This document shows positions 28,731 to 53,662 of a stretch of 64,000 nt of DNA, in pieces. Under the pieces are notes generated by a model, which did no database searches, was not told the DNA's origin, and saw only the letters and a program-made list of their open reading frames with translations. Source of the stretch: Mobula birostris (lineage: Eukaryota). The stretch lies in NCBI RefSeq assembly GCF_030028105.1, contig NC_092395.1:22846424-22910423 (forward strand). The letters are read 5' to 3'. Positions within the stretch are counted from its first letter, which is position 1, and the number at the start of each line of letters is the position of its first letter. A program made the position numbers and the translations under genes.

Positions 28731-28935
28731 GGTACAGCAATTCTACTGTATTAAGCTGCAAAGTTACAACTGCTACGTACAGTATCAGGCCCATTACAAA
28801 TTAAATTTTGATAATCTTCACTTGGTAGATCGTAGAGGATTCCATGCCAACATACAAGGATAATGTTGAAGATCCTTGAAACAAAAATACATTCCATTGA
28901 CTCCCTGTATCTTATATTCTAATCACATTAATTAC

Positions 28936-29071
28936 CGAGAAAGACAGTGACATTCTTGCTGTTCTTAGCCATGTTCATTTCTAGCACAAAATCTGAGTGC
29001 GTCTTGAAGTTCAGGAGAGCCGATTTCTTTTTACGAAGTGCCACCACTTCCTTAAGGATATCTGTGTTGTC
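28936..29071 (-). CDS. THOP1: THOP1 coding exon 6 (not in the ORF track)
   Basis: ctag|GAC ... TCG|gtaat; DNTDILKEVVALRKKKSALLNFKTHSDFVLEMNMAKNSKNVTVFL; 136 nt. Confidence 0.95.
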
Positions 29072-30168
29072 CTAGACCAACAAAAAGAAAAATTTGCTTA
29101 TGTCTTTATACTAAAGCACTAAGTAATACAAGTGGCTGTACACCCTTGCTATGCCCAATCATGCTTTGAAACTACTTGCTGAGTATACAGTACTTAGTTA
29201 TGCAGAGCAGAAAGGCCCTACATTCCAATGACAGGAGGGGATACGGAAGTCATACTACACTCCTGTTGATTACAATTTAGATTCTGGGTGGAGAGCGCAA
29301 GATACAATGTTTCAAATTGTGACTCAAAGGGCCTGTTCCTGAGCTGTAATGTTCTGAGTGCAGCTACAACATACAGATTGCACTCCTGACAAGACTTTAT
29401 GGAAAAAATTAACGTAAATGCTCAAAATAAATAACATTACTAGAAAAGAACGACACTTTCCTGTGGAGGGGGGGCTGATACCTTATAGTTTTAGAATCAA
29501 GAGTTTGATACTTACCTCAGGTGCTGTCTGTGCAGAGCTTGTATGCTTTCGACACAATTGCATTAGCTTCATCTAGGTGTTTTGATTTCCTTTCATATCC
29601 CAATAACCTGCTGGTGGATTTATCTGGCTACTGTAAACCATTTGCTAGTGTAGATTAACAGCGGGAAAGAATCATAGGGAATTTATTGGGCATGTGCAAT
29701 AAACTGCATGGGTAGAGGGAATGACATAAATCTAATAGAAACAATACCCTCTATCTACCTAGTTACAAGTATATCTTTTGGGCATTCAAGGTGAACAGTT
29801 TAAAAAAAAACCTTGCAAATATTAGGCAGTACTAAAATAGATACGTCATTTAAGAACTTCAAAGAAGGACAGGCTTAACATGGAGAGTAAACATACTAAT
29901 GATTAAAAAGTGACATGGTATTTATATTAAACAGAAGTAGAGGCATTAATAAGAGACTTAACAGAAAGTTCCTTAATTGATAAGTGGAAAGGGTGCATTG
30001 GCTGAAGCAAACAGAATACATGTATTTAACAGAAAATAATTATGCACCAGAAAGAAATAATGAAAGGTAAGCTGAAACAAATATGCAACAGAGCAGAACA
30101 ACTTGCCAGTTTTTGTGCTGTAAATTCTCTGTTATTGAACAGAGGTTATCAAGTAAAGCCAAGCCTAC

Positions 30169-30329
30169 CTTCATACAACGGGAGTTGAAGGCTTGCTCCA
30201 TCTTCCTCCTGGTTTCTGGGACGTAGCACTTCTTCATTAAAGGAAAATAATGTGGATATTTTAGTGTCACCTTTAGCATCCCGGTTTCTGTTTTTTCCAA
30301 GCCACTGATAAAGTCATCAGGGAGACCAC
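30169..30329 (-). CDS. THOP1: THOP1 coding exon 5
   Basis: ttccag|GT ... AAG|gtagg; [13 protein letters not shown]...[16 protein letters not shown]...FNSRCMK; 161 nt. Confidence 0.96.
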
Positions 30330-30665
30330 CTGGAAGCACAATATGCCATTATCAACATCAAAGCCAAAAATCACTTCAATAAAACTCAGTATTTATATTA
30401 CTCACTCAACATATAATAAAAGATCTAACAATTGATTCAAATGAGAAACATAGGTTTGGCCTCCGGAAAAGCTGCTAAACTCATTCAGTGATATGAAGAG
30501 AGTCTCATTTATTCTCTAATCTGCATCAAGTAATCTTAATTTAATCAAACAGTTGCAGGAAACTCTACACACTGCTGTATGAAAGCACGGCAGCGCCCTA
30601 CTTTCGAGGTTTGCATTGATTCAGCACGTCATCTAAAAATTAGACAAACTTTTAGAGATGTGTGG

Positions 30666-30904
30666 TGTTGCGCATCATGTATTTAATAATATTTGAGTAA
30701 TATTGTAAATATTGTTTGATTAAGCATTCTTTGTTGTTTAAGTAATTCATTATGGTTATATGTACAAAGTATGTGAATGGCATACATCAACACCCCACAT
30801 GATATGCATGTGCCTCGTTTAAAATAAAATCGAAGTAAATGACTAATCTCCCTTGTTTCCCTTCTGATTAGTTTTTAACGCTTTGGAGTTACAAAGCATA
30901 ACAA
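30666..30904. mobile_element. Probable solo LTR
   Basis: TGTTG...TAACA termini and an internal AATAAA; interrupts the Rex sequence. Confidence 0.5.
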
Positions 30905-31396
30905 ATATATTGACTGGTTACATCATGGCCTGGTATGAACACGCCAATGCCCTTGAATGGAAAAGCCTACAACCCAGTCCAGCAGTGGGGAAGTCCTCCC
31001 CACCACTGAGCACATCTACATGGAGTGATGTTGCAGGAAAGCAGCATCCATCATCAGGACCCCCCCCTTCCCCCTCCCCACCACCCAGGCCAAGCTCTCT
31101 TCTCGCTGCTGCCATCAAGATGGTAGGAGCCTCAGGACCCACATCACCAGGTTTAGGAATAATTATTACCCCTCAACTATCAGGCTCTTGAACCAGAGGG
31201 GATAACTTCACTCACCCCCAACACCGAACTGTTCCCACAATCTATGGACTCACTTTCAAAGACTCTTCATCTCATGTTATCGATACTTATTGCTTTTTTA
31301 AAATTTATTTGTTGCATTTGCAGTTTGTTGTATTTTGCGCATGGGTTGTTTGTCTGTCTTCTTGTGTGTGGCCAATCATTGATTCTATTGTGTTTC

Positions 31397-33419
31397 CATA
31401 TAACCATATAACAATTACAGCATGGAAATAGGCCATCTTGGCCCTTCTAGCCCGTGCCAAACTCTTACTCTCACCTAGTCCCACTGACCTGCACTGAGCC
31501 CATAACCCTCCATTCCTTTCCTGTCCACATACCTATCCAATTTAACTTTAAATGACAACATCGAAACTGCCTCAACCACTTCTGCTGGAAGCTCGTTCCA
31601 CACAGCTACCACTCTCTAAAGTAGTTGCCCCTCATGTTACCCCTAAACTTTTGCCCTTTAACTCTCAACTCATGTTCTCTTGTTTGAATCTCCCCCATTC
31701 CCAATGGAAAAAGCCTATCCACATCAACTCTATCTATCCCCCTCATAATTTTAAACACCTCTATCAAGTCCCCCCTTAACCTTCTACACTCCAAAGAGTA
31801 AAGACCCAACTTGTTCAACCTTTCTTTGTAACTTAGGTGCTGAAACCCAGGTAACACTCTAGTAAATCTTCTCTGTACTCTCTCAATTTTGTTGACATCT
31901 TTCCTATAATTCGGTGTCCAGAACTGTACACAATACTCTAAATTTGGCCTTACCAATGCCTTGTACAATTTCAACATTACATCCTAACTCCTATACTCAG
32001 TGCTCTGATTTATAAAGGCCAGCATACCAAAAGCTTTTTTCACCACCCTATCCACATGAGATTCCACCTTCAGGGAACTATGCACCATTATTCCTAGATC
32101 CCTCTGTCCTACTGCATTCTTCAATGCCCTACCATTTACCATGCATGTCCTATGTTGATTAGTCCTACCAAAATGTAGCACCTCACACTTATCAGCATTG
32201 AACTCCATCTGCCATCTTTCAGCCCATCCTTCTAACTGGCCTAAATCCCTCTGCAAGTTTTGAAAACCTACTTCATTATCCACAACTCCACCTATCTTCG
32301 TATCATCTGCATTCCTACTAATCCAATTTACCACCCCATCATCCAGATCATTAATAGATATGACAAACAACATTGGACCCAGTACAGATCTCTGAGGCAC
32401 ACCAGTAGACACCGGTCTCCAACCTGACAAACAGTTATCCACCACCACTCTCTGGCATCTCCTATCCAGCCAATGCTGAATCCATCTTACTACTTCAATA
32501 TTAATACCTAACGATTGAACCTTCCTAACTAACCTTCCGTGTGGAATCTTGTCAAAGGCCTTACTGAAGTCCACATAGACAACATCCACCGCTTTACTCT
32601 TGTCAACCTTCCTAGTAACCTCTTCAAAAAACTTAATAAGATTTGTCATCATGACTTTCCACGCACAAATCCATGTTGACTGTTCCTAATCAGACCCTGT
32701 CTGTCTAGACAATTATATATACCATCTCTAAGAATACTTTCCATCAATTTACCCACCGCTGACGTCTAAGTCACAGGCCGATAATTGCTAGGTTTACTCT
32801 TAGAACCCTTTTTAAACAATGGAACAACATGAGCAATACGCCAATCCTCCAGCACCATCCCCGTTTCTAACGACATTTGAAATATTTCTGTCAGAGCCAC
32901 TGCTATTTCCACACTAACTTCCCTCAAGGTCCTAGGGAATATCCTGTCAGGATCCAGACACTTATCCACTTTTATATTCCTTAAAAGCGCCAGTACTTCC
33001 TCTTCTTTAATCATCATACTTTCCATAACTACCCTACTTGTTTCCTTTACCTTACACAATTCAATATCCTTCTCCTTAGTGAATACCGAAGAAAAGAAAT
33101 TGTTTAAAATCTCCCCCATCTCTTTTGGCTCTGCACATAGCCATCCACTCTGATTCTGTAAGGGACCAATTTTATCCCTCACTATCCTTTTGCTATTAAT
33201 ATAACTGTAGAAACCCTTTGGATATATTTTCACCTTACTTGCCAAAGCAACCTTATATCTTCTTTTAGCTTTTCTAATTTCTTTTTTAAGATTCTTTTTA
33301 CATTCTTTATATTCCTCGAACACCTCACTTACTCCAAGCTGCCTATATTTATTGTAGATCTCTCTCTTTTTCCGAACCAAGTTTCCAATATCCCTTGAAA
33401 ACCATGGCTCTCTCAAACC
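31397..33419 (-). mobile_element. CR1 LINE, 5'-truncated, inserted in the Rex 3' UTR
   Basis: RT ORFs at 31606-33473 (DFSKAFDK, GVPQ, ADDTK, LVRPNLEYC); CCATATAA-type tail. Confidence 0.92.
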
Positions 33420-34303
33420 TTGTATGTCTGCAAGAAAATGGATCTTGAGGGTTGTACATGGAGATATATGCACTTTGATAATAAATGTACTTTGAACTTT
33501 ATTGGTTTAAATATTTCACTAGCAAAACAGGCACAGAATTACTATCTCTACTTTAAAACATGGTCTGAAAATAACAAAGGAGAAAGACATGGGTTCAGTT
33601 TCATGTCCATATATTGAAATAATCCAGGTATACATAAAACACAGCCAATTGGATAAGATAGAGCGTACTCAGGATTGAAAGAAATATAATCTTCCTCATT
33701 AAGGGAAGAAAATGGACAACATACAAATGAACCAAGGACAGCATTCTATAATATTTTCTCTAATATCTGAATAAGAGCAATTTCAAATGATGAATTGAGT
33801 GTATCACAACAGTACAAGTATATTTGTTAAATGGAAAAGTCCAGCCGGATAGTTTAATCTGAAAGTTGCCACTTTATTAGGTACATCTGTACACCTGCCC
33901 ATTAATATCTAATCAGCCAATCATCTGGCAGCAATTCACTGTATAAAAGCATGTAAACATGGCCAAGAGGTTCAGTTCAAACCAAACATCAGAATGGGGA
34001 AGAAATCTGATCTAAGTGACTTTGACCGTGGAATGATTGTTAGTACCAGACAAGATGGTTTGAACATCTCAGAAACTGCTGATTTCCTGGGATTTTCACA
34101 CACAACAGTCTCAAGTTTACAGAGAATGGTGCGATAAACAAAAAAAAATCCAGTCGCAACATTTCTAAGGGTGAAAATGCCTTGTTAAGGAGAGAGGCCA
34201 GAGAAGAATGGTTCAAGCTGACAGTAACTCAAATAACCACACATTACAACAGTGGTATTCAGTACAGTATCTCTGTACACACGTCAAACCTTGAGTGGAT
34301 GAG

Positions 34304-36878
34304 TCAATAGACAATAGGTGCAGGAGTAGGCTATTCGGCCCCTCAAGCCAACACCGCCATTCACTGTGATCATGGCTGATCATCCCAATCAGTACTCTGT
34401 TCCAGCCTTCTCCCCACATCCCTTGACTCCGCTATCTTTAAGAGCTCTATCTAACTCTTTCTTGAAAGAATCCATTGAATTGGTCTCCACTTCCTTCTGA
34501 GGCAGAGCATTCCACAGATCCACAACCCTCTGTGTGAAAAAGTTTTTCCTCAACTCCGTTCTAAATGGTCTACCCCTTATTCTTAAACTGTGGCCTCTGG
34601 TTCTGGACTCCCCCAACATCGGGAACATGTTTCCTGCCTCTAGCGTGTCCAATCCCTTAATAATCTTATATGTTTCAATCAGATCCCCTCTCATCCTTCT
34701 AAATTCCAGTGTATACAAGCCTAGTCACTCCAATCTTTCAATATATGACATTCCCGCCATCCCTGGAATTAACCCAGTGAACCTACGCTGCACTCCCTCC
34801 ATAGCAAGAATGTCCTTCCTCAAATTTGGAGAGCAAAACTGCACACAATACTCCAGGTGGGGTCTCACTAGGGCCTTATACAACTGCAGAAGGACCTCTT
34901 TGCTCCAATACTCAACTCCCCTTGTTATGAAAGCCAACATGCCATTAGCTTTCTTCACTGCCTGCTGTACCTGTATGTTTAGTTTCAGTGACTGATGAAC
35001 AGGGACACCCAGATCTTGTTGTACTTCCCCTTTTCCTAACTTGACACCATTCAAATTGTAATCTGCCTTCCTGTTCTTGCCACCAAAGTGGATAACCTCA
35101 CAATTATCCACATTAAACTGCATCTGCCATGCATCTGCCCACTCATCCAACCTGTCCAAGTCACTATGCATTCTCATAACATCCTCCTCACATTTCAGTC
35201 ATCCAGCTTTGTGTCATCTGCAAATTTGCTAATGTTACTTTTAATTCCTTAATCTAAATCATTAATGTATATTGCAAATAGCTGCGGTCCCAGCACCGAG
35301 CCTTGTAGTACCCCACTAGTCACCGCCTGCCATTCTGAAAAGGACCCGTTAATCTCTACTCTTTGTTTCCTGTCTGCCAACCAATTTTCTGTCCAGGTCA
35401 GTACCCTACCCCCAATACCATGTGCTCTAATCTTGCCCACTAACCTCCTATGTGGGACCTTATCAAAGGCTTTCTGAAAGTCCAGGTACATACACTACAT
35501 CCACTGGCTTTCCCATGTCCATTTTCATAGTTACATCCTCAAAAAATTCCAGAAGATTAGTTAAGCATGATTTCCCCTTCGCAAATCCATGCTGACTCAG
35601 ACCTATCCTGCTACTGCTATCCAAATATGCCGCTATTACATCTTTTATAATTGACTCCAGCATCTTTCCCACCACTGCTGTCAGATTAACTGGTCGATAA
35701 TTGCCTGTTTTCTCTCTCCCTCCTTTCTTAAAAAGTAGAATAACATTAGCTATCCTCCAATCCACAGGAACTGATCCTGAATCTATAGAACATTGGAAAA
35801 TGATTACCAAAGCGTCCACAATTTCTAGAGCCACCTCCTTAAGTACCCTGGTATGCAGACCATCAGGCCCTGGGGAGTTATCACCCTTCAGTCCCATCAG
35901 TTTACCCAACACCATTTTCTGCCTAATACGAATTTCCTTCAGTTCCTCCATTACCCTAGGTCCTCTGGCCACTATTACATCTGGGAGATTGTTTGTGTCT
36001 TCCCTAGTGAAGACAGATCTAAAGTACCTGTTCAGCTCGTCTGCCACTTCCTTGTTCCCCATTATAATTTCACCCCGTTTCTGTCTTCAAGGGCCCAACT
36101 TTGGTCTTAACTAATTTTTTCCTCTTCACATACCTAAAGAAGCTTTTACTATCCTCCTTTATATTCTTAGCTAGCTTACCTTCGTACCTCATCTTCCCCC
36201 GCCCCTCCCCATATTCCCTTTTTAGTTATCTTCTGTTGCTCCTTAAAAGTCTCCCAATCCTCTGGCTTCCCACTCATCGTTGCTATGCTATATTTCCTCT
36301 CTACTTTTATACTATCCTTGTCATCCATGGTCGCCCCTTACTCCCCTTAGAATCTTTCTTCCTCTTTGGAATGAACTGATCCTGCACCTTCCGTATTATT
36401 CCCAGAAATACCTGCCATTGTTGTTCCACTGTCATCCCTGCTAGGGTATCTTTCCAGTCAACTTTGGCCAGCTCCTCTCTCATGGGTGCATAGTCCCCTT
36501 TGTTCAACTGTAATACTGACACTTCCGATTTTCCCTACTCCCTCTCAAATTGTAGATTAAAACTTATCATGTTATGGTCACTACCTCCTAATGGCTCCTT
36601 TACCTCAAGTTCCCTCATCAAATCTGGCTCATTACACAACACTAAATCCAGAATTGCCTTCTCCCTGGTAGGCTCTAATACAGGCTGCTCTAAGAATCCA
36701 TCTGTGAGGCATTCCACAAACGCCCTTTCAACCAACCTGATTTTCCCACATGTTGAAATCCCCCATAACAACCGTAGTATTATCTTTGCGACATGCCAAT
36801 TTTAACTCTTGATTTAACTTGCACCCTATATCCAGGCTACTGCTTGGGAACCTGTAGATAAATCCCATTAGTGTCTTT
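34304..36878 (-). mobile_element. CR1 LINE, frameshifted ORF2
   Basis: Endonuclease end (GGSDHNMI) and RT fragments; CAATAGACAATAG tail. Confidence 0.92.
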
Positions 36879-36885
36879 TTATATA

Positions 36886-38813
36886 CCGTAAATTCCGGTG
36901 TACAAGCCGAGAATTTGACCCTAAATTTTGGTCCTAAAATTAGGGAGTTGGCTTATACAGAGGGTGCCAACTTTGGAAAAATGAATACAGGGAAGACAGG
37001 TCGTATTTATTGGCTGTTTTTGAGTCAAATTCATTCCACTGTCGATGCAGGAGTTCTTTGAATGGTTTGTTTAAACTCCCATCTAGTGGCTGGATCACGG
37101 ACATCAAACCACCGGGGATGACTGCAATGTCCGTATTTTCAGCTTTCAATACTGCTTTTGTCCCACCTGACAAGTGCGCTTTGAACATATCCCAGACAAG
37201 TAGCAACTTTTCCTTCCCGAAACCTCGGGGACATCGACACCACACCTCTTTAACCCACTTCAAGCAACCCACTTCATCCATCCAGCAGCGTTTTTGGACA
37301 TAAACACCCCCCGCAGGAATTTTCTGAGCAATCTTTGTTTTTTGTCTCAACACAACATCACGTCTATTCATAAAATTTTGCGTAGCTTTGAAATTTTTGC
37401 TGACCTCACGGTGTTTTTCGTCCCATTTCAACACTTGAACTTGAATTATTTCTCTGGTAACAATGTATCCAGTCGATCGCTGGTGATTCCACCCACTCTA
37501 AAACTTTTTCTTCCAGTTCTGGCCACTGGCATGTTTTCCCGCAGTTTGCACATTTCGTCTTTAGCATTTCCCTCAGTGTGTCCTCTGCCTTTCTCCATTC
37601 TCTCACTTGTTTCCCGTTTACGCTAAACTTCTTAGCAGCTGCAGAATTATTTGTTCCTTTAGCAAAATCAACAACCTCCCAGGAGGAGGGAGAAGATGGC
37701 AGCGCGTGCAGCCACGTCAGTGATGATATCTGTTATCTGTCAAGTAGGGGATCGTGCCCAATTCTGATTTGATGGAGACGGACGTGAGAGCACAGAGGAA
37801 CATCCGGAAAACTTCTGAAATGCCCACTTTGCTGCCGCTACTACTGTGTGGTAACCAGAATCTCCGGAGCTGAAGGCCTTGAAATCCTTGGCTTTGCATG
37901 TTTCAGCGGCCGGGGAGAGGTCGAAGGCACTCGGCAGAGGATGGCGCTGGGAGGCTGTATCGGGGAGGCTGGTCGGAAGCTCGAAGTTTTCAGACGGATG
38001 GACTTAGTGTCGGCTGCTTCCAAGGTACTGGCAAGTTGACGGTGCCTGGAGATTTAAGGCAGGGAGTTTCTCCCTTTTGCCGCCTGTTATTGGGGACTCG
38101 GGGAGTCGATCGACTCGGGACTTTGAGACTTCTTTTTACTGGGCCCATGGTCTGTTCATCAAATTATGGTATTGCTTGGCACTGCTGTAACTACATGTTA
38201 TAATTATGTGGTTCTGTCAGTGTTAGTCTTTGGTCTGTCCTGTTTTCTGTGATATCACTCCGGAGAAACATTCTATCATTTCTTAATGCATGTATGCATT
38301 TCTAAATGACAGTAAAAGAGGACTGAGTGTTCTCATGATCTAATCTAACCTTCAGCTTGAAGCCAGCATCATATCGCATTCGTTTTAATCTTTTGTACAT
38401 GGTGGTCGCAAACTCAATACTGAGCACAGATACTGATCCCACCACCCCATGTTATGTTTTAACGAGATTACGGTGGGCGCGAAATGGTTTCACGGGGGTT
38501 ACATTCCAGAGGATCCTTTACCATTGGGAACCTAATCCAAAACTTCCCTCCCTGATTTATTTATTAAGAATTTGCTTACAACGCCCTGCAATGTGTAGGC
38601 CTGTTTTCTTAGCAGGTACTGGTTCACAAAATTGCCAGGTTCTGGATCCAGCAAAGCTGAGTACCGGCATATGAGATCTTGTGATCTTTTCTGGTTAAAT
38701 CAAAAACCTCTACAAAAGGGGTTGGCTTATACAAAGGTAACATGAAAAAGTCACTTTTTTAACCTTGAAAATGGGGGGGGGGGGTTGGGTCGGCTTATAC
38801 TTCAAATATACGA
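36886..38813 (-). mobile_element. pogo-family (POGK-like) DNA transposon, decayed
   Basis: TA-CCGTAAATTCCGGTGTACAAGCCG ... CGGCTTATACTTCAAATATACGA-TA termini. ATG at 38400 gives MYKRLKRMRYDAGFKLKVVDFAK...AAAKKFSV..KQVREWRK (Brinker-type DNA-binding domain); DDE part LLVWDMFKAH...IPGG..QPLD..LNKPFK. Confidence 0.88.
37678..38346 (+). mobile_element. Non-autonomous retroposon inserted in the pogo ORF
   Basis: AACCT duplicated at 37673-37677 and 38347-38351; 5' AAGATGGC motif; CTAATCTAA tail. The pogo reading frame is restored on removal. Confidence 0.75.
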
Positions 38814-39689
38814 TAATCCACAAACATATACTCAGTGGCCACTTTATAAGGTATAGGGGATACCTGATAAAGTGGCCACTAAGTGTATAAAGACAACAAA
38901 AACTCACACCAAGGCCACAGAGTATGAAAACAAAAGAGATAGCAAATGCAGAAATCAAGAACCAAAAAAAAACTCAAATTACTCCTTAGGTCAAACATCA
39001 TCTGTGGAAGCAAAAGATGGTCATCTCAAACTTCTAGCTGCATATCAATTTAAATCTCTTTCCCACTCCCACCGTGACCTGTCTGCCCTTGGCCTTTCTC
39101 CCCTTAACTAGGGAGAAGATATACACATTAGGAGAAAGCATCTCATATTTCACTTGGGTGCCTTTCAACTCTATAATATAATTGATGATTTGGGTTACCC
39201 ACACTTACTCACTTCTCCGCCATTTTTTTGTCCATTTATTCATCCCTCTACACTCCCGGTTGTACCTATCCATGATCCTCTCCCATCTGGCTCCACCTAT
39301 CACCCAACAGCCTTCATACTGCTATACATGAGCAATTTTTTTTAGATTTCTTCCCAGTCTGATGTAGTCTTGACAAGAAGCATCAAGTCATACCTTTTAA
39401 GAGATGCTTGGATAAATACATGGATGGGTTGGGATATGGAGGGCTGAGGTCAAGGTACAAGTCAATGGCACTAGACAGAATAATAGTTTCATACATAACT
39501 AGATTGGCCAAAGGGTCCGTTTCTGTGGGGCAGTCCTCTATAACTCCACAGATACTGCATGACTCACTGAGTCCTTTCAACGCTCTGCTTTTTTGAAATG
39601 ACTATGTAGATAAGATTGTTTTATATCACAATTCTAAAAAGGGACAATGAATGTTCTATCTAACAATGGATCAAAACAATATATACGTA

Positions 39690-41218
39690 CAGTGACATGC
39701 AAAAGTTTGGGCACCCCTGGTCAAAATTTCTGTTACTGTGAATAGCTAAGCGAGTAGAGGATCTCCATAAGTCATAAAGTTAAAGATGAAACATTCTTTT
39801 CAACATTTTAAGCAAGATTAGTGTATTATTTTTGTTTTGTACAATTTTAGAGTGGAAAAAAAAAAAGGAAAGGAGCACCATGCAAAAGTTTAGGCACCCC
39901 AAGAGATTTGAGCTCTCAGATAACTTTTTACCAAGGTCTCAGACCTTAATTAGCTTGTTAGGGCTATGGTTTGTTCACAGTCATTGTTAGAAAAGGCCAA
40001 GTGATGCAAATTTCAAAGCTTTATAAATACCCTGACTCCTCAAACCTTGTCCCAACAACCAGCAGCCATGGGGCTCCTCTAAGCAGCTGGCTAGCACTCT
40101 GAAAATTAAAATAATTGATGCCCGCAAACTAGGAGAAGGCTATAAGATAGCAAAACGTTTTCAGGCAGCCGGTTCCTCAGTTCGTAACCTAATTAAGAAA
40201 TGGCAGTTAACAGGAACAGTGTAAGTCAAGTTGAGATCTGGAAGATCAAGAAAACTTTCCGAGAGAATTGCTCGTAGGATTGCTAGAAAGGCAAATCAAA
40301 ATCCCCGTTTGACTGCAAAAGACCTTCAGGAAGATTTAGCAGACTCTGGAGTGGTGGGCACTGTTCTACTGTGTAGCGACACCTGCATAAATATGACCTT
40401 CATGGAAGAGTCATCAGAAGAAAACCTTTCTTGTGTCATCACCACAAAATTCAGCGTCAGAAGTTTGCAAAGCCTGATGCATTTTGGAAACAAGTCCTGT
40501 GGACTGATGAAGTTAAAATCGAAGTTTTTGGCCGCAATGAGCACGGAGTTGGATCGATCATGCTTTGGGCTTGTGTTGCAGCCAATGGCACAGGAAACAT
40601 TTTACTGGTAGAGGAAGAACGAATTCAGTTAAATACCAGCAAATTCTGGAAGCAAACATCACACCATCTGTAAAAAGCTGAAGATGAAAAGAGGATGGCT
40701 TCTGCAAAAGGATAATGACCCTAAACACACCTCAAAATCCACAATGGACTACCTCAAGAGGCGCAAGCTGAAAGTTTTGCCATAGCCCTCACAGTCCCCC
40801 GACGGAAACATCATCGAAAATCTGTGGATAGACCTCAAAAGAGCAGTGTATGCAAGACTGCCCAGAATCTCACAGAACTAGAAGCCTTTTGCAAGGAAGA
40901 ATGGGCGAAAATCCTCCAAACAAGAATTGAAAGACTCTTAGCTGGCTACAGAAAGTGTTTACAAGCTGTGATATTTGCCAAAGTGAGTGTTACTAAGTAC
41001 TGACCATGCAGGGTGCCCAAACTTTTGCTTCGGGCCCTTCTCCTTTTTTGTTATTTTGAAACTGTAAAAAATGGAAAAAGTAATCTTGCTTAAAATATTA
41101 AAGAAATGTATCATCTTTAACTTTATGCCTTTTGGAAATCAGGTCATCCTTTATTCGCTTAGCTATTCACAGTAACAGAAATTTTGACCAGGGGTGACCA
41201 AACTTTTGCATGCCACTG
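39690..41218 (+). mobile_element. Tc1 IR/DR-type transposon with long TIRs and defective transposase
   Basis: TA-CAGTGACATGCAAAAGTTTGGGCACCCCTGG ... CCAGGGGTGACCAAACTTTTGCATGCCACTG-TA. Inner DRs near 39877 and 41010. [35 protein letters not shown] motifs. Confidence 0.93.
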
Positions 41219-41355
41219 TATACACACACCACAGAATTAAATCCACAGGTCTGTAGATTCATGATCTTAAACTTGAAATTGTGGGCTCACTAAATGTATA
41301 AATACAGTTTCATTTGTTATTAATAGGGATAAATTCCAATTCAGGATGAACTCAC

Positions 41356-41458
41356 CGAGTTCATCCTGTGTAAACCCCAGGAACGTGGTATTCTCATTCA
41401 GGTTCTTGCTGAAGTCTATGCATAAAGTACTGATTTTCTTCTTGATAGCTTTGATCTC
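41356..41458 (-). CDS. THOP1: THOP1 coding exon 4
   Basis: cttcag|GAG ... TCG|gtgag; [34 protein letters not shown]; 103 nt. Confidence 0.96.
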
Positions 41459-41670
41459 CTGAAGCACAAAATAAATTACATTAGGTCCTTTCACTCGCAA
41501 TTCCCAATACTTTAGGGACATTGTACATTCCTGAATAAAGTACTTAAATACAACATTTGATAGTACAGGAAGATCTAGTGGCCTAATAAATGCAGCCATT
41601 GATAAAGATGAATTTCCTGGAGACCTAGCAGAAAAATCCAAGTAATGTGATACTGATATAACAGCCTCTC

Positions 41671-42206
41671 TGTAATGTTTCACTGCTAAGGTAATGGTTT
41701 CTCTCTAACAGCAATGTTCGGGTTATGACTAGAGGTAACGGGGCCTTTGGAATGTATGTTAGCCAATGAGAGGCAGGTTGTGTTTTCTTGTGGGTCTGGG
41801 AGCAAGGATTTCATGGTCTTTTGCCGGGGAGAGACAAGGAGAGAAGACGTGAATGGAGAGAGTTGGTAGACCACCGGACGGAGTGGACTTGGAGTGAGGG
41901 TCTGAGGGTTGGCTATGCTTGGAGGAGGTCGACAGGGAACCAGTGGACTGAACCGTGAGCTCCACCGTTGACTGTTTCATCAGAACTGGCCTTTTTCTTT
42001 TTTTTGTTTCTTTACTAACCACCTAGTCAAATTAAGAATTATAAAGCTGAATTGTTTAATTGCATTAAACTGCTTGTTATTTTGTGATACTGATTTGTAA
42101 TAGGGGACTCATTGCGCAGCATTCACCCAAACAAGATTTCTTAAGTTTGGCCGGGCCAAGGGCTGTCTGCCCCTGGATTATGCTGCTAGCTGAACCAAGA
42201 GTTACA
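41671..42206. mobile_element. Probable solo LTR
   Basis: TGTAA...TTACA inverted termini, about 540 bp, compositional shift from the flanks. No clear TSD. Confidence 0.45.
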
Positions 42207-42584
42207 CTGACAAAGGAACCAGAAGTTCCAATATGCCATTTCTCTTCAATGTTCAGTTAAATATTAACTGGTGTACCAGTTACTTAAAATTACTTGGGTT
42301 AATGTTACATAATATTTCTGTGAATGACTACTCATCCGGATCATCAAGATTTTCGATTTAAATACAGAGATTCTGCAAATGCTGGAAATCCAGATCAACA
42401 CACAAAATGCTGGAGAATCTCAGCAGGGCAGGCAGCATCTATGGAGGGGTTGATGCATCTGGCTGAGACCCTTCATCAGGAGTATCTTAATGAAAATCTT
42501 CATCAGATTTTAATTTAGTTTCTTGCCTGGAAAACACAGGAGCTGTGGTCAGCTTTATAATCAGCTCCCAAAAGCATTGCAGGA

Positions 42585-45433
42585 GCCTGACGTGCAGATT
42601 GTTATTAATGATTATGATATAGTTGGGATCACAGAGACATGGCTCCAGGGTGACAGGGATGGGAGCTCAACGTTCAGGGATATTCAATATTCAGGAGGGA
42701 TAGACGTGAAGGAAGGGGAGGTGGGGTGGCGTTGCTGGTTAAAGAAGAGATTAACGCAATAGAAAGGAAGGACATAAGCCGGGAAGATGTGGAATCGATA
42801 TGGGTAGAGCTGCGTAACACTAAGGGGCAGAAGACACTGGTGGGAGTTGTGTACAGGCCACCTAACAGTAGTAGTGAGGTCGGAGATGGTATTAAACAGG
42901 AAATTAGAAATGTGTGCAATAAAGGAACAGCAATTATAATGGGTGACTTCAATCTACATGTAGATTGGGTGAACCAAATTGGTAAAGGTGCTGAGGAAGA
43001 AGATTTCTTGGAATGTATGCGGGATGGTTTTTTGAACCAACATGTCGAGGAACCAACTAGAGAGCAGGTTATTCTGGACTGGGTTTTGAGCAATGAGGAA
43101 GGGTTAATTAGTGATCTTGTCGTGAGAGGCCCCTTGGGTAAGAGTGACCATAATATGGTGGAATTCTTCATTAAGATGGAGAATGACATAGTTAATTCAG
43201 AAACAAAGGTTCTGAACTTAAAGAGGGGTAACTTTGAAGGTATGAGACGTGAATTAGCTAAGATAGACTGGCAAATGACACTTAAAGGATTGACGGTGGA
43301 TATGCAATGGCAAGCATTTAAAGGTTGCATGGATGAACTGCAACAAATGTTCATCCCAGTTTGGCAAAAGAATAAATCAAGGAAGGTAGTGCACCCATGG
43401 CTGACAAGAGAAATTAGGGATAGTATCAATTCCAAAGAAGCAGCATACAAATTAGCCAGAGAAAGTGGCTCACCTGAGGACTGGGAGAAATTCAGAGTTC
43501 AGCAGAGGAGGACAAAGGGCTTAATTAGGAAGGGGAAAAAAGATTATGAGAGAAAACTGGCAGGCAACATAAAAACGGACTGTAAAAGCTTTTATAGATA
43601 TGTAAAAAGGAAAAGACTGGTAAAGACAAATGTAGGTCCCCTGCAGGCAGAAACAGGTGAATTGATTATGGGGAGCAAGGACATGGCAGACCAATTGAAT
43701 AATTACTTTGGTTCTGTCTTCACTAAGGAGGACATAAATAATCTTCCAGAAATAGTAGGGGACAGAGGGTCCAGTGAGATGGAGGAACTGAGCGAAATAC
43801 ATGTTAGTAGGGAAGTGGTGTTAGGTAAATTGAAGGGATTGAAGGCAGATAAATCCCCAGGGCCAGGTGGTCTGCATCCCAGGGTGCTTAAGGAAGTAGC
43901 CCAAGAAATAGTGGATGCATTAGTGATAATTTTTCAAAACTCGTTAGATTCTGGACTAGTTCCTGAGGATTGGAGGGTGGCTAATGTAACTCCACTTTTT
44001 AAAAAAGGAGGGAGAGAGAAACCGGGGAATTATAGACCGGTTAGCCTAACGTCAGTGGTGGGGAAACTGCTGGAGTCAGTTATCAAGGATGTGATAACAG
44101 CACATTTGGAAAGCAGTGAAATGATCGGACAAAGTCAGCATGGATTTGTGAAAGGAAAATCATGTCTGACGAATCTCATAGAATTTTTTGAGGATGTAAC
44201 TAGTAAAGTGGATAGGGGAGAACCAGTGGATGTGGTATATTTGGATTTTCAGAAGGCTTTTGACAAGGTCCCACACAGGAGATTAGTGTGCAAACTTAAA
44301 GCACACGGTATTGGGGGTAAGGTATTGGTGTGGGTGGAGAGTTGGTTAGCAGACAGGAAGCAAAGAGTGGGAATAAACGGGACCTTTTCAGAATGGCAGG
44401 CGGTGACTAGTGGGGTACCGCAAGGCTCAGTGCTGGGACCCCAGTTGTTTACAATATATATTAATGACTTGGATGAGGGAATTAAATGCAGCATCTCCAA
44501 GTTTGCGGATGACACGAAGCTGGGTGGCAGTGTTAGCTGTGAGGAGGATGCTAAGAGGATGCAGGGTGACTTGGATAGGTTGGGTGAGTGGGCAAATTCA
44601 TGGCAGATGCAATTTAATGTGGATAAATGTGAAGTTATCCACTTTGGTGGCAAAAATAGGAAAACAGATTACTATCTGAATGGTGGCCCATTAGGAAAAG
44701 GGGAGGTGCAACGAGACCTGGGTGTCATTATACACCAGTCATTGAAAGTGGGCATGCAGGTACAGCAGGCGGTGAAAAAGGCGAATGGTATGCTGGCATT
44801 TATAGCGAGAGGATTTGAGTACAGGAGCAGGGAGGTACTACTGCAGTTGTACAAGGCCTTGGTGAGACCACACCTGGAGTATTATGTGCAGTTTTGGTCC
44901 CCTAATCTGAGGAAAGACATCCTTGCCATAGAGGGAGTACAGAGAAGGTTCACCAGATTGATTCCTGGGATGGCAGAACTTTCATATGAAGAAAGAATGG
45001 ATGAACTAGGCTTGTACTCGTTGGAATTTAGAAGATTGAGGGGGGATCTGATTGAAACGTATAAGATCCTAAAGGGATTGGACAGGCTAGATGCAGGAAG
45101 ATTGTTCCCGATGTTGGGGAAGTCCAGAACGAGGGGTCACAGTTTGAGGATAGAGGGGAAGCCTTTTAGGACCGAGATTAGGAAAAACTTCTTCACACAG
45201 AGAGTGGTGAATCTGTGGAATTCTCTGCCACAGGAAACGGTTGAGGCCAGTTCATTGGCTATTTTTAAGAGGGAGTTAGATATGGCCCTTGTGGCTACGG
45301 GGGTCAGGGGGTATGGAGGGAAGGCTGGGGCGGTGTTCTGAGTTGGATGATCAGCCATGATCATAATAAATGGCGGTGCAGGGTCGAAGGGCCGAATGGC
45401 CTACTCCTGCACCTATTTTCTATGTTTCTATGT
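42585..45433 (+). mobile_element. Young CR1 LINE, 5'-truncated, with an 871-aa uninterrupted endonuclease/RT frame
   Basis: ORF 42726-45341: VYRPP, GDFN, SDH, QHGF, DFQKAFD, GVPQGSVLGP, FADD. One frameshift near 42655. Intact 3' UTR with TTTCTATG tail. Confidence 0.97.
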
Positions 45434-45636
45434 ATATATTAAATTAAGGAAACTCCAAGAATGGCACACAGATCATATGTGCTGGGTAGTGACACATTTT
45501 TAACTTTTACCCAAGTCCCCCCAAAAACCAAAAGGGCAGGTTATTCCCGCTTATATTAATATTAATCCTGCATTATTTACTAGCATTCTCATTTTGATTA
45601 AATATCTATAAATGCCACAATTTTACTGCTATTCAC

Positions 45637-45744
45637 CTCTTGCTTCTCTTTACACAAATGGAGTCCATTTCTTTTTCCTAATTTCAACAGTCTTTCCATG
45701 TAGCGCCTAGCTTCCGGCCGTAGATCTTCAGCTTGACATTTATC
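45637..45744 (-). CDS. THOP1: THOP1 coding exon 3
   Basis: cctcag|GAT ... GAG|gtgaat; DKCQAEDLRPEARRYMERLLKLGKRNGLHLCKEKQE; 108 nt. Confidence 0.96.
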
Positions 45745-46966
45745 CTGAGGGAGAAAAGAAACATCCAGAGTGACTAGAAGCAAAGAATCATCTTAAATGA
45801 ATTTACCTTACTATGTAAAGGAATCTAGAAAATATCTTCATACAGACAAAAAGCATCTTTTACATGAGCATAATTTTTACTGATTTGTCAGCTGGAACAG
45901 TGACAATTAGGATCCTTTATTCCAAAGATGGAACACTTTACTTCAGAGATGACTGCAGGATATAACATTTAACATCACATTTTCCAACAAATCCTGTTTA
46001 CCTAATAAGTGAAGCCAATGTTAATGATGTTATTACACCAACAATTATTTACACAATATTTTGGGAAAAATATGCAGACTGAGGGTCGCACATATATGGA
46101 ATGAGCTGCCAAAAGAAGCAGTTGAGGCAGGACCAATAAAAATATATAAAAGACATTTAGACAAGTATGTGGAAAGCAAGGAAATTGGACTAGTTCAGAT
46201 GGGCATCTTGGTTGTCATGATCAAATTGGGCTGAAGAGCCCTTTTCTGTGCTGTACAACTCTATGACTGCAAGTGCAAATGAAATAAAGGTCACAGACCA
46301 GTTAACCTACTTTGATCCTACTGAATAATGGGGAAATCAAGACATCCACAGAAACACTGATTTTAGTATTCACATTCATCTTTTCAGCTCAATATGAGAA
46401 ATTTAATATCATTGTTGAATGATGCTTCTAAAAGTGCAACATTTCCTCAAATACAGCATTAAGATGCCAGCTTAGATTGTGCTTTATAATCCTGGATGTC
46501 AGTATAACCCATGACCCCACGATGTAGAAGCAAACAGGTATAAAGTAATTATGTTAGAGTAGACAAGTACTCTATCTGAAGTGCATCAGCAAGTCCGCGC
46601 AGAGCTCTGAAGAATATCGGAAAAGTTGGATGTTCATGGTTTTAGAAAAAACAGCTATTATGGTGTCTAAAATGGGAACACTTAAACCCGAGTCAGTACT
46701 GATGTTCAAAACAAAGTAAAAATTCTCACCACCCAAACCAAAACAGACTGGTTCATGCTAAACAAAAGGAGGTGTTTTCACTGTTGTCTTCAGTTCTGCA
46801 CCTATCTGATATCCCAGCAAGCTATTCATTTATGAAAAACTACTCAAAAAATATTGTTGTAAATTACTAGGGCCATCATGAGCCGTGTCCCTTTGTTCTC
46901 ATCAGCTGCGGCATTGCTTAGCCCATTGAGCTGGAATCCACTGAAGAAATACAAAAACAAAGTATA

Positions 46967-48586
46967 CAGGTGTCCCCACATTTTGAACGTTCGCTTTACA
47001 AAACCTCGCTGTTACGAAAAAAGGCAGCGCGCGCCCCGAGCAGCCAAGCTCCTCCCCCGGAACTGCATTCTAGCCGGCATTGCTTAAACACGTGCCTGTG
47101 AGCATCTGTGCATTATGTCGATTTATTTTGAGCATCCGTTAGCAAGATGAGTTCTAAGGTATTGGAAAAGCCTAAAAGAGCTCGTAAAGGTGTTACACAG
47201 CGTAAAACTAGACATAATTAAGCATTTCGATCCTGATGAACAAAGTAAGGACAAAGTTTGGCTTGTGGAAGTTGACAAAGATGATGTTGAAGAGGTTTCA
47301 GCATCCCATGACCAAGAATTGATAGATGAAGAGCTGATGCAATTGGAAGAGGAAAGGATAACAATTGAAACTGAATGTAGTAGCGAACAGACCAAAAGTG
47401 AAGTCGTTCAGGAACTGAACATGAAGCAACAGCATGAGATTTTCACTGCAATGATTGCAGAAAAGTATGACTTTAATTTTGAAAGGGTACGTAGGTTTAG
47501 GGCATATTTGTAGGATGGTTTGAGTGCTTACAAAGAACTGTATGATAGAAAAATGAGCGAGGCTAAGCAGTCAAGCATACTGTCATTTTTCAAGCCTTCC
47601 ACATCAGCCACAGCAGACGATGAACCTCGACCTTCGACATCGAGGCAGGAAGACATAGAAGAAGATGATCTGCCTGCCCTGATGGAAACAGACAACAATG
47701 AGATGACACCCCAGTGTCCCACCACACCAACATCCGAGCCGCGGACCGATATAGGGCTGCGAAGAATGTAGTGGTGCAGCAGTAGCCGGGACGCACCCAG
47801 CACATCTTTAAGAAAAAAGCCAAAATAAACAAGCTAATTAATTAGCTTGTTGGAAGGGTCTCGGCCCAAAACGTCAACTGTATCTCTTCCTAGAGATGCT
47901 GCCTGGCCTGCTGCATTCACCAGAAACTTTTATGTGTGTTGCTTGAAATTCTAGCATCTGCAGATATCCTCGTGCTTGAGCTTGTTTATTTCGGCTTTTT
48001 TCTTAACGATGTGCTGGGTGCATTCCAACTACCGCTGCGCCACTGCACGTTTCACAGCAATGTATCAGTCTGCGGTCTGGAGGTTGGGGGCCACTGCACC
48101 ACCCCAACCTCTGACGACTCAGCCTAACACACCATCATCAGTGTGCTCGGCGCTGTCTTCCCGATTCCGGTAAGTGATACTACACTGTACATACATTATT
48201 TCTACTTTATATAGGCTGTGTATTTTTAATGTGTTATTTGGTATGATTTGGCAGCTTCATAGCTTAAAGGTTAATGGAAAGAGTGTTTCTGCCGAGCGCT
48301 TGCGTGAGATTTTCGCTACGGTGGACAGTTCGGCAATGATTGTAGAAAAGTATTTCTACTTTATATAGGCTGTGTACTTATCATATCATTCCTGCTTTCA
48401 CTATGTTACTGTTATTTTAGGTTCTATGTGTTATTTGGCATGATTGGCAGGTTACTTTTTGGGTCTGCGAATGCTCACAAATTTTTCCCATATAAATAAA
48501 TGGTAATTGCTTCTTCACTTTACAACATTCCGGCTTACAAACCATTTCATAAGAACGCTCTACCTTCGAGTGGTGGGGAAAACCTG
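46967..48586 (+). mobile_element. Tigger-like internally deleted DNA transposon
   Basis: TA-CAGGTGTCCCCAC ... GTGGGGAAAACCTG-TA. A Tigger N-terminal remnant (VKLDIIKHF) is fused to the C-terminus (DVEEV.ASHDQELIDEELMQL; YKELYDRK..AKQSSILSFFKP). Confidence 0.85.
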
Positions 48587-48714
48587 TAATGCTCTGACAA
48601 TACTTTTGAAACTAATATTCGTAGAACTATCAAAAAAGGAATCTTGCAAAATAAAAGTGGCCTAAAATTTTCTTCAGCACCCCCACACTTTATTCAACCA
48701 GCATCATTTCTCAC

Positions 48715-48863
48715 CTGAAGAGCAACAATTCTCTGGTAAACATCTTCTCTCATGCTCATCTCTACATCAAATTCAGATAACCGTTTATCTGCCTCAGTGC
48801 TCGCAGCCCGAACTTCTTTGCAAGGAGAAACATGCTGTGGGAAGTCAAGAATATTCCGCTGAA
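48715..48863 (-). CDS. THOP1: THOP1 coding exon 2
   Basis: tttcag|TT ... CAG|gtgaga; [50 protein letters not shown]; 149 nt. Confidence 0.97.
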
Positions 48864-49184
48864 CTGAAATAACAAAAAATATCTCAGTATTAGATCCAAA
48901 GCATTCGACAAAGCAATCTTCCATTACACGAGAGATATTAAGAGAAAAATCTAGTACAAAGCACATTTCACTGGGAAGGGCATTCTTACTGCTCTTAACT
49001 TCCATACTGTGATACTTCAGTTTGTCATTTCAAGATAAGTATTCACCATGGAATGAAAGATATGGGCTTATTGACAGAAAGGAAGTCTTAGAACATAAAC
49101 AGATAGCTTCCTCACATGAGCTCAAGCATACACTTTCCAACTTTATTTACTCTATAGCAACTTGGACAGAAATTCCAAGAAATA

Positions 49185-50200
49185 ATCTGCGCACACCCAT
49201 CTTGCCGCTGCCTTGATAGAGTTCTTCTTGTCCTTATCCACCAGCCCATCAGCCTCCGCATCCAACACATCATCTTCTGCAATTTCCATAATCTCCAAAG
49301 GGATCCCACCACTAAAAACGCACCTTTGCCTCCCACCCCCTTCCTGCTTTCCGTAGGGATCACTTCCTCCACAATTCCGTTATCCATCCGACCCTCCCCA
49401 CTAATCTTCCTCCCAGCACCTATCCCTGCAAGCAACCCAAGTGGTACACCTGGCCAGACACCTCCTCCCTCACATCCATTCAAGGCCCCAAAGAATCCTT
49501 CCAAATGAGGAATACTTCACCTGTGAACCTGATGGGGTCATCTATTATGTCCAGTGCTCCCACTGCAGCTTCCTCTACATAGCTGAGACCCGTCATAAAC
49601 TGGGGGACCCCTTCATCTAGCACCGTCACTCTCTCCACCACAAGTTGAACTTCGATGGCTAAACATTTAAATTCTAATTCCCTTTCCCCTTTTGAAATGT
49701 CAGTCCATGGCCTCCTCTTGTGCCAAGATAAGGCCACGCTCAGGGTGGAAGAGCAATATCTTACATTTCTTCTGGATAGTCTCCAACCTGATAGCATGAA
49801 TATCAATTTCTCTTTCCAGTAGGAAAAAATCTTTATCCTCTTCCTCTATTCCCCACTCTAACCCTTTACTTCTTCTTAGCTGCCCATCATTTCCCCCGGG
49901 TCCTTTTCTCCTTCCCTTTCTACTTTGGTCAACTCTCCTGTCCAATCAGATTCCTTCTTCTCTAGACCTTGACCATTCCCACCACCTGGCTTCACCAATC
50001 ACCTTCCAGCTAGCTTCCTTCCCCTTCCCCCACCTTTTTCCCCTGGTGTCTTCCTCCTTCCTTCTCAGTCCTGAAGAAGGTTCTTGGCCCAAAATGTCAC
50101 TGTGTATTCATTTCCACAGATACTGGCTGACTTGCCCAGTTCCTCCAGAATTGTGTGCGTTGTTTTGGATTTCCAGCATCTGCATATTTCTTCATGTTTA
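49185..50200 (+). mobile_element. Penelope-like element 3' part, decayed
   Basis: GIY-YIG remnant (VIYYVQCSHCSFLYIAET...) and terminal repeat with cagtc-CTGAAGA...AAAA-tgtc-actg. Confidence 0.85.
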
Positions 50201-53200
50201 TCATTACAGTGTATTTTTGTTTTCAATGCTTTGAAGTTGCTGATAAAGTTGATGTTTCTGGCTGATCCACTGTATTGCCCATTTTGAGAAGTAGGCATCA
50301 TGAACATTTATTGTCATCCTCTAATTACCTGTAGGAAACCAAAGCACCCAGGGGAATGAATTCCACGCATTCACAGAGAACTGGCAAACTCCACACAGAG
50401 CAGTATCGAACCTAGGTCACTTGAGCCACAAGACACTGAACTACCCACAGCAGCAACATGCCACTCGAGGGCTAACACTTGTGTAATGCAAATATTATTT
50501 ACCATTTACCACCCCATGCTTGAATATTGTCTGGGTATTGCTGCATACAAGCTTGGACTCCTTCATTAAATGAGGATCATTTGAAATCATCATTTCCATT
50601 GGAAAATCTATGTTATAAATTGTTGAAACTTTACTTAATGAAAACTCATTCATAATGTACACAGCATATTTAGGTGAGTGCAGGCGATTAGGTAACTTTC
50701 ATGTGATTTCTTGGTTACACTATATAACATGAAAACTAACATAACCTCAGACCTATTTGTCCAACAAAGCCACGGAGAGACAGAGGTAAAATCTCCTGTC
50801 AGCAGTGATCTCTACACAAAATAATAGAATGTCTGGTCTATTGCTTACAAAGGTATTTCCACAAAATGACCCATTTTGAACAATGCTTTCTAGATACAAC
50901 AATCAATTTGATGGGATCACCACTGAATTTTCTTTATGCTATTTACAGTACAAATGAAAAGTGTGACACTTCTCCCTATTCAGTATAAATAATTGTATTT
51001 TAGGTACTAATAATAGAGTTTGCTCATGCACAATGTGTATGCATTAGTTTGCAATAGAATATTATGGATACAAGTTGAAATAAAGGGCATCTATTGCAAT
51101 GAACCGGCACCTGTGACACTGAATGAAATATTGATTTGTTCAAGCAGCACCAGTGGGCAAAGGTTGAATATTCAGCAGGCAGATTTTCCCTTTCATCACG
51201 GTAACATCTGCTGACAATTTGATTCCATGCATACTGGCTAGATTATGGTCCTCAAGCTTAGCTACAAGTCGCCAGCATAAACTGAATACTGCACTGACAA
51301 ATGAGGCACAGGTGACAGTGAATTCAGTACACACGTAATCAATATAGCATCCCAACACTGCTGTTTCTAAACTATTCCCTAAAGAGCTTGCTGTACTGCT
51401 ATTTACATCTCTGCATGCAAACAAGCCCAACAGATCATGATTTAAAGTCAGAAGTGACGCTTTAGATGATCTTCTGGTTAAAAATGTAGACTAATTCAAT
51501 TCTGCAAGTAGCATACAAGATGGCACAAATGAAAGGAAACTACAGCACAATAAATACAATTTCATCCAGTATACAAAAGTTATATGTCAGGATTTATTAA
51601 CTTCCTATCCAGATTTTAGTCTTTTCTATCTGTGACATTACAGTAGAGTAGACAAGGAAAATTTGCTTCCTATTGATACAAATTGCTGGTGACCTCAGAT
51701 TTAAAATAATTGGTTAAAAACAAATCCAAAAGGTAGACACTGGATTCAGAGGTAGCTTTCAGTACTATATTGTTATGATCTGGAATTCAATACCTGAAAG
51801 GATAATGAAAACATATTCAATAGTAACTTACAAAGGATTTTGCATCCATCTGTAAACAAAAAGGAAATGGGAAAAGCAGGTGATTGGGAGTATATTGAAA
51901 AGCTATATCAAAGAGTTGGTACCAATATAAACTGGTTCCTTCTGTGCTGTGTGACTCAGTGAAATGCAAGACACCATCAAGCATTGAAGTGAAGTCAGCT
52001 AATTCAACAGGAGAGCTTTCTTTTTCTTTAACAGTGCAATCTGATATCATTTTATGAGGCATGTCACTCACAGCTGACACAATGGATAATACTCCTTTTG
52101 CTTTTGTTTCTTTTCCAAACCGAGATTTTTTAAAACTTGCAGATAAAACAACCAAATTAACAATGCTTTCCTAACTTTAAACCAATTTCTGAATCCAGCC
52201 TAATTGACTTTTAATTCTAAAATGAATTCCGAGATGCTTCTACTGATGGGCATACTTTCATGCTCATAGGCAGTTTTGATCCAACAAACTCAATGAATTA
52301 GGTTTGGATTTAAGAATTTAAGTTTGGATAGGTACTTGGATGAGGGAGGTATGGAGGGCTATGGTCTGGGTGCAGATAGAACTAGGCAGTAAAACAGGTT
52401 GGCATTGACTAAATGGGCTAAAGGGCCTGTTTCTGTTCTGTAGTGCTCGATGAAATCCAAGCTATCAGCATAATATTTAAATTTATAATTTGCAGGCAGG
52501 TCTTTCGGTCTGTTTGTATTGACTCTTCAACTAGACAAAAATAATCCAGTTAGTCAGCTCTCTCTCTCACCACAGCTGTCTTCCTCAATTTCAACTATTA
52601 ACAGCCTTGAAGGATGGCATTCTGCCCATCAACTCTAAATAGCACTTTGCAGAACCTTCTCTGAGAAAGTTATGCAGTTCCATAGTATATGTGGACTTAG
52701 GTATTCTCAAACTCCATTTGCAACCTGGTAATTTTATTTTTGAAATGCAATCATTGTTGTGAGTAGACGAAAACACTTCCACACACAGCAATATGACAAG
52801 AAATAGATATTGACCATTTGTGGTTGCTCTCATCAAAATCAAACTTCAGGAAACAAGCTTCTGGAGATTAGCATCTGGAGACAGTGTTTTGAGTTGATAC
52901 CTTGCATCAAAAATGAATTAAAGCACTTGAAGTCGCTTGGATTTCCATAATACTTAAAGACTTTCTCAACCTTGGATAAAAGGATTAATACTTGATACCA
53001 AACAAGAGGCCAGCAATTTCCCACTCTCCTTATTTACATGGTGTCCTGCCACCTACTCTCACCTGTTAGTAAATTACAGGCACCAATTAACCCACCAGAA
53101 GAAATGCCCAGTCATGGGAAAAATGTACAAGTTCCACACAGACAACCATGGATTCAGTTTAGGAATTAACCTGGGACTCAAGCTGTGAGGCAACTAAACT

Positions 53201-53662
53201 AAATAATTACGGTGAGCAAGTCACCTATCTTCAAAACATGTACTAACACGTAAGGACCGCCAAGGGCTGGCTAATCCAATAGAACACAACTGAACCCAGA
53301 TTTTGCACTCAACTCTCCGGAGTGGCGGTTCTATCACTAGGCCACATCTGCCAGCTCCACTAATTCCATAACGTTCTAATGTTTCCTTTCCAGTCTGCAT
53401 TCAACTTCTTTCAGAATACTATCACTGTACACTTAAACCAAGCCAGCAGGTCCAAGATCACCGCGAGAGTTGTGCAATTATTAAAATATAAATATGCAAC
53501 ACCCGCTTAATAAACAGAAGCTGATAAGTGCAGGTTTACTCGTCAAGGCACCTGGTGATGTTTTGATTCCAGTGATGTTGCTGCTAAATTAAAATGAACG
53601 AGTCAACTCATTAAATCTCAGGGCGTTACAATCCCCGAAACATTGCACCCCCCTCCCCTCAC

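Follow-up and report, generated by a model that had tools for sequence, protein, structure and literature searches.

A perfect 12-bp hairpin spanning the exon 4 splice donor of THOP1 in Mobula birostris and relatives

The THOP1 gene and the hairpin at its exon 4 donor

The stretch analysed here, called the window, comprises 64,000 nucleotides of Mobula birostris DNA, and mapping ray and shark proteins onto it revealed THOP1 with 12 coding exons. The coding region (13606..53882, minus strand) is intact with 689 codons, and the joined 12 exons give 689/689 residues of the named M. birostris THOP1 protein (P0131). Coding exon 4 (41356..41458, minus strand, 103 nt) is preceded by exon 3 (45637..45744, minus strand, 108 nt) and followed by exon 5 (30169..30329, minus strand, 161 nt). 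Compared with solved structures, the minus-strand frame 41458-41357 matched thimet oligopeptidase with an E value of 9.6e-10 and neurolysin more weakly (5.3e-08). The gene, the exon number and the exon length given in a first-pass annotation, made from the sequence alone, were all borne out. Nine of the 12 coding exons have a length that is not a multiple of three. The glycine of the FLGF motif at 41376, a glutamate in other rays and most sharks, was found only in organisms A and C and in the named M. birostris protein. Long stop-free frames on the minus strand at 23083-24411 (496 codons) and about 18100-19740 (547 codons) run from THOP1 exons into introns, and probably reflect a biased intron composition.

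The introns around exon 4 are rich in mobile elements. At 39688-41220, starting some 135 nt past the donor in the intron below it, lies a Tc1/mariner-type element in decay, with terminal inverted repeats and a transposase broken into pieces. Within intron 3, antisense to THOP1, lies a LINE open frame of 895 codons (42654-45341, plus strand), likely a young copy, whose product has an endonuclease domain (Pfam Exo_endo_phos) and a reverse transcriptase domain (RVT_1). An inverted LINE pair (34307-36074 and 43656-45423), about 80% complementary over about 1.75 kb, is situated in the introns flanking exon 4 alone; given its many repeats, the genome probably holds numerous such pairs.

The hairpin is encoded by an inverted repeat at 41342-41368, which reads CAGGATGAACTC ACC GAGTTCATCCTG on the plus strand, with two arms of 12 nt (41342-41353 and 41357-41368), 100% complementary and separated by a spacer of 3 nt. 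Since 41356 is the last exon base on the minus strand, exon positions -13 to -2 pair with intron positions +3 to +14 and G|GU alone is left unpaired. The 5' arm (41357..41368, minus strand) is formed by the last four codons of coding exon 4 (Gln-Asp-Glu-Leu), and the 3-nt loop (41354..41356, minus strand) holds the final exon base and the donor GT of the junction used in RNA contigs. The 3' arm (41342..41353, minus strand) covers the intron positions, with donor consensus at +3 to +6 (GAGT) and eight free positions at +7 to +14. The description given in the first-pass annotation, a perfect 12-bp stem with a G|GU loop at the donor, proved exact when set against the sequence and the exon mapping, whereas its discount of three pairs for the consensus GAG was too small, as GTGAGT supplies four. 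A genome search showed the hairpin locus to be single copy, and the identical hairpin letters recur in contigs of four other organisms, which excludes an assembly artefact. A derivation of the intron arm from a repeat was rejected on a search of the genome, where the first 131 intron bases are single copy. Rfam covariance models gave 0 matches at E<=1 in 41200-41700, and a search of openly accessible literature listings found no report of a THOP1 donor hairpin.

Predicted folding and use of the donor

Within a 111-nt context the 12-bp stem was recovered as drawn (z -2.59; 3/200 shuffles equally good), in agreement with the fold proposed beforehand. For the hairpin alone, predicted energies are -17.7 kcal/mol at 37 °C, -21.6 at 25 °C and -23.2 at 20 °C. 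The local fold energy at the exon 4 donor is -18.8 kcal/mol, compared to 0 to -7.2 kcal/mol for the ten other donors of the gene, and 0/517 background G|GTRAG sites reach -17.7 kcal/mol. The stem is too short for an ADAR or microRNA substrate (12 bp in a fold without extension), and these candidates were dismissed.

The accessibility of the donor to U1 was assessed with the U1 5' end sequence taken from the ray's own genome. The donor UCG|GUGAGUUC pairs with U1 at -9.4 kcal/mol, the fourth best among the gene's 11 donors. Opening positions -3 to +6 is predicted to cost 8.3 kcal/mol, which does not exceed the span of values at the other ten donors (1.7-9.4 kcal/mol); this cost is moderate because the lower eight pairs can remain. 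If opening extends to +8 or +14, the cost rises to 13.1 and 15.5 kcal/mol, respectively, both the highest among the 11 donors. The hairpin is thus a predicted stem over the U1 binding site, and the earlier proposal that it hinders U1 is borne out as a prediction by the cost for -3 to +8. In the stretch 41470-41150 there is no cryptic donor with U1 pairing below -5 kcal/mol, except for two weak ones, which lie 126 and 128 nt beyond the exon end.

The use of the donor was followed in four sequencing runs (X16, X17, X19, X20) over 28920-48900. None of the runs is on record as RNA; their RNA nature was a guess, which exon-joining contigs back in the case of X16 and X17. Run X16 (organism A) yielded a contig of 4631 nt (depth 41.6) and X17 (organism B) one of 4655 nt (depth 36.4), and in both of them exons 2 and 5 are exactly 211 nt apart. 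As 211 nt is the sum of exons 3 and 4, exon 4 is included via the hairpin donor in the dominant mRNA of both organisms. Exon 4 was thus included in 2/2 readable RNA contigs, although assembled contigs lose rare forms; among the matches listed, X19 gave a piece of exon 5 alone and X20 no exon piece. Inclusion here means the dominant, not the sole form, because contigs drop rare forms and nonsense-mediated decay (NMD) would hide skipping. A contig of run X9 that carries the exon and 93 intron bases was considered as a case of intron retention; it spans 41263-41456, bounded by GATC at both ends, and was therefore read as restriction-library DNA and not as RNA evidence.

In the NMD rule, a premature stop counts when it lies over 50-55 nt ahead of a junction. 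The expectation that skipping of the 103-nt exon shifts the frame was confirmed: a stop would arise at codon 178, within exon 5 and some 104 nt ahead of the junction between exons 5 and 6, a distance sufficient for an NMD-coupled switch, and intron retention would lead to a stop at codon 223. The ingredients of an NMD switch do exist at exon 4, as they do for most frame-shifting internal exons. A protein of the skipped or retained form was found neither among 15 listed of the 26 members of the ray cluster nor among 8 longer matches, and every listed full-length named ray and shark protein contains exon 4. The 581-aa isoforms of three rays start at a later methionine and keep exon 4. In predicted seal THOP1 isoforms (P0012-P0017, P0020, P0023, P0024, P0026), exon 4 is joined to an alternative or later exon; being gene models only, they may represent mammalian alternative splicing downstream of the exon 4 donor.

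Conservation and the background of perfect hairpins

Contigs of organisms B, C, D and E were compared with the window over 41225-41760, and they differ from it at 5/464, 0/194, 36/494 and 26/407 letters, respectively. Organisms D and E are about 6-7% diverged, and two exon changes in them correspond to Cys of the named Hypanus and Hemitrygon proteins, for which reason they are taken as stingray-like. The 27-nt hairpin shows zero changes in 4/4 relatives, with one contig per run and site, two of them at a depth under 5. Covariation, for which the first-pass annotation had suggested a check, was not found, as a stem without any change in four relatives holds no compensatory change. Under neutrality, the probability that 8-12 free sites (8 intronic, 4 synonymous) all stay unchanged amounts to 0.24-0.76 for a local intron divergence of 3-11%, and the invariance of the hairpin is within neutral expectation. 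With flanks diverged by 30%, neutral survival of the stem would drop to 1-6%. The proximal intron past the stem (41225-41341) changed at 4/117 sites vs 18/160 in the upstream intron (p=0.023; p=0.12 once a cluster of 20 nt is counted as one), a weak hint of constraint. At 41581-41601, eight substitutions plus a deletion within 21 nt set organisms D and E apart from A and B, although one change is shared by B; this cluster may be a single complex mutation.

Beyond these relatives, a protein search among 1.84 billion representatives gave 131 matches, mostly read-through frames from exon 4 into the intron, which resemble homologues of bony fish, birds, mammals and invertebrates. After removal of 16/131 (spliced, without the junction glycine, or unrelated), 115 frames were scored at the amino-acid level: compatibility with a 12-bp stem was found in 0/115, with 9 bp in 1/115 and with 6 bp in 9/115. 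Judged from these frames, the stem is not general in animals at this intron of THOP1. Skate or shark read-through proteins were not recognised among the 131 matches; another search returned 8 spliced proteins, a further one a single candidate without a score, and three frames of the window were absent from the collection searched. Neurolysin, the paralog, shares the 103-nt exon but not the stem, and a metagenome scan for exon 4 gave 0 matches.

The first-pass annotation had put the chance of a perfect match at 4^-12. This figure is too small, since a fixed position is the wrong null for a site picked after the fact in a genome rich in perfect stems. The background was determined in 36 stretches of 10 kb from 17 contigs, mostly non-coding DNA, by counting perfect, non-simple hairpins with a stem of at least 12 bp and a loop of 3-10, while arms of simple repeats were tallied separately. 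Four such hairpins were found in 360 kb, with stems of 22, 14, 13 and 12 bp. Together with the window, the tally is six perfect hairpins in 424 kb, whereas five rounds of local shuffling yielded 0.4 on average (Poisson p about 4e-6), and most perfect stems of such length in this genome therefore do not come from independent letters. Apart from the THOP1 donor, perfect hairpins were located in the window at 2860-2890 (13 bp) and in the background stretches L027 (2758-2805, 22 bp), L018 (1822-1853, 14 bp) and L025 (3783-3811, 13 bp). The rate of perfect stems amounts to about 11 per Mb (3-28, resting on 4 events), or ~10-15 times the shuffle rate. From this rate, a donor GT is expected inside the loop of such a hairpin at about 3e-5 per donor, or 4e-4 for the window's 11 donors. 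With 2e5 donors assumed genome-wide, and selection at junctions ignored, about 7 donors would have the GT in a loop and about 60 any overlap. The donor hairpin thus exceeds the expectation for random letters and is rare per gene, yet it is expected occasionally in a large scan.

A proposed tolerated copy and its alternatives

From the observed geometry, the presence in five organisms, the inclusion of exon 4 in two of them and the genome-wide excess of perfect stems we infer, with reasonable but limited confidence, that the hairpin goes back to an old template switch, which copied the exon end into the intron start in one step, and that a strong donor tolerates it. The neutral template-switch product, which the first-pass annotation had offered as an alternative, is the best fit among the readings. 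The exon end ACTC-G happens to complement the GAGT of the donor, which would provide a seed of 4 bp, and a template switch during replication would then have stretched this seed to 12 bp by overwriting intron +7 to +14, with the protein and the donor unaltered. What was found, a perfect inverted repeat with a short spacer, of a kind in genomic excess, is consistent with such an event. QDEL of the exon arm is present in 15/23 named cartilaginous-fish (ray and shark) proteins; the exon arm is thus old protein sequence, which makes the intron the likely copy. At the outer pair, Narcine has Lys in place of Gln, and catsharks have Arg. The origin would predate the split of the devil rays from the stingray-like organisms D and E, and slow substitution, the constraint of the protein on the exon arm and possibly recurrent repair via template switching may account for its persistence. 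Along these lines, template switching has been described to create hairpins in one step and to be able to maintain them without selection (PMC5453318 and PMC8794818, in the parts available). The switch itself is deduced from a single state, as all four relatives already have the stem and a stemless ancestor was not seen among them.

With a strong U1 match (G|GTGAGT) and the usual unwinding, splicing would prevail and the stem would at most slow the use of the donor. That the stem is tolerated because the donor is good is suggested by precedents from SMN2 and yeast: PMC1802598 describes predominant inclusion of SMN2 exon 7 when its stem had 11 bp and position -1 was G, and for a yeast donor that paper cites a 9-bp stem as ineffective in vivo and one of 15 bp as blocking. 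On the other hand, comparable stems silence some exons (SMN1/SMN2, PMC1802598), for which reason one might have expected decay or purging of a neutral stem, and the extreme stem energy as well as the low divergence of the proximal intron count against a tolerated copy.

Among the alternatives, a selected regulatory stem comes first, which would compete with U1, cause skipping or retention followed by NMD, and so set the dose of THOP1, perhaps by tissue or water temperature. It is backed by opening costs of 13.1 (full U1 site) and 15.5 kcal/mol (-3 to +14), the highest of the 11 donors, by a predicted stability that rises in cooler water (-21.6 kcal/mol at 25 °C, -23.2 at 20 °C), by the premature stops upon skipping (codon 178) and retention (codon 223), by 27 unchanged nt in 4/4 relatives whose same contigs differ elsewhere (D 36/494, E 26/407), by the little diverged proximal intron, and by the inverted LINE pair that brackets exon 4 alone, inverted Alu pairs having been linked to loop-out skipping (PMC13019027, in part). 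However, covariation is absent and the conservation is non-significant, exon 4 is dominantly included in 2/2 readable RNA runs, the minimal opening cost of 8.3 kcal/mol is not unusual beside those of the other donors (1.7-9.4), and the stem is missing from other animals at this intron (0/115). The lack of skipped or retained proteins among the 15 listed of 26 cluster members and 8 longer matches also speaks against it, although NMD targets are not expected there. The regulated switch put forward in the first-pass annotation is thus not supported, given dominant inclusion in two organisms, no compensatory change in four relatives and a conservation compatible with neutrality, and we consider selected regulation unlikely. 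A more specific proposal, in which a single mutation produced a 12-bp lock in stingrays and devil rays that was then selected as a temperature- or helicase-sensitive, NMD-coupled switch of THOP1 dose, is decidedly improbable; in the same proposal, donors would lend themselves to seeding template switches, since copying an exon end that complements GURAGU into the intron would harm neither the protein nor the donor.

A match that arose by ordinary point mutations, with neither a special mutational origin nor a function, gains from the four pairs that the consensus supplies free, from the very many donors scanned, and from other animals, whose read-through frames fit 6 bp in 9/115 and 9 bp in 1/115 cases; it is nonetheless quite improbable in view of six stems in 424 kb against 0.4 in shuffles (Poisson p about 4e-6). 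Least probable of all is a stem that aids splicing or protects the transcript, for example by keeping the donor back pending definition of the upstream intron, or by presenting G|GU in a loop: exon inclusion is good in spite of the hairpin, and the hairpin is old, but a 3-nt loop cannot host the U1 helix of 7-9 bp unless the stem opens. Furthermore, the precedents, as far as the available parts of PMC2794156, PMC1802598, PMC9236610 and PMC4974535 describe them, are uniformly repressive.

The THOP1 donor hairpin is real and limited to one lineage, and it adds a further case to a known type of structure. A related structure is the hairpin of tau (MAPT) exon 10, which reportedly has about seven stable pairs (PMC6720520) and is thus shorter than the THOP1 stem. 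In both cases the exon end pairs with the intron start across the donor; the tau hairpin sets a roughly 1:1 isoform ratio, as proven by mutations (PMC9236610, in excerpt), whereas that of THOP1 is known from sequence and prediction. Similar in shape is TSL2 of SMN1/SMN2 exon 7 (PMC1802598, in part), likewise a short triloop stem at an exon-intron junction; it competes with U1, as is predicted for THOP1, and its effect varies with stem and donor strength. According to the same excerpt, TSL2 is a stem of 8 bp, nearly all exonic, at a weak donor of an exon with demonstrated skipping, whereas THOP1 has 12 perfect pairs, one arm fully intronic, the GT in the loop and a good donor, and skipping was not seen in the dominant RNA contigs. 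The HIV-1 SD hairpin (PMC4974535) and the attenuated donor of MLV (PMC2794156), as described in the accessible parts of both papers, resemble it in that the U1 site of a donor still in use is hidden by a local hairpin. Repression of the donor has a purpose in HIV-1 and MLV because these viruses require unspliced RNA. For THOP1, we know of no use for an unspliced or skipped form. Short-range template-switch hairpins (PMC5453318, PMC8794818, both in part) share with it the perfect repeat, the short spacer, the near-palindromic seed and a possible persistence without selection; they were shown by states before and after the event, whereas THOP1 is known from the after state alone. The word 'splice' is absent from the main text of PMC5453318 as far as available.

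The THOP1 donor hairpin is probably without a regulatory role. If neutral, it would represent a natural test of the hairpin strength that is tolerable at a used vertebrate donor, a case of tolerance in which 12 perfect pairs, surpassing every one of the 517 donor-like sites of the background, reside on an exon required for the intact enzyme. If functional, it would be a splicing regulator born in a single template-switch step.
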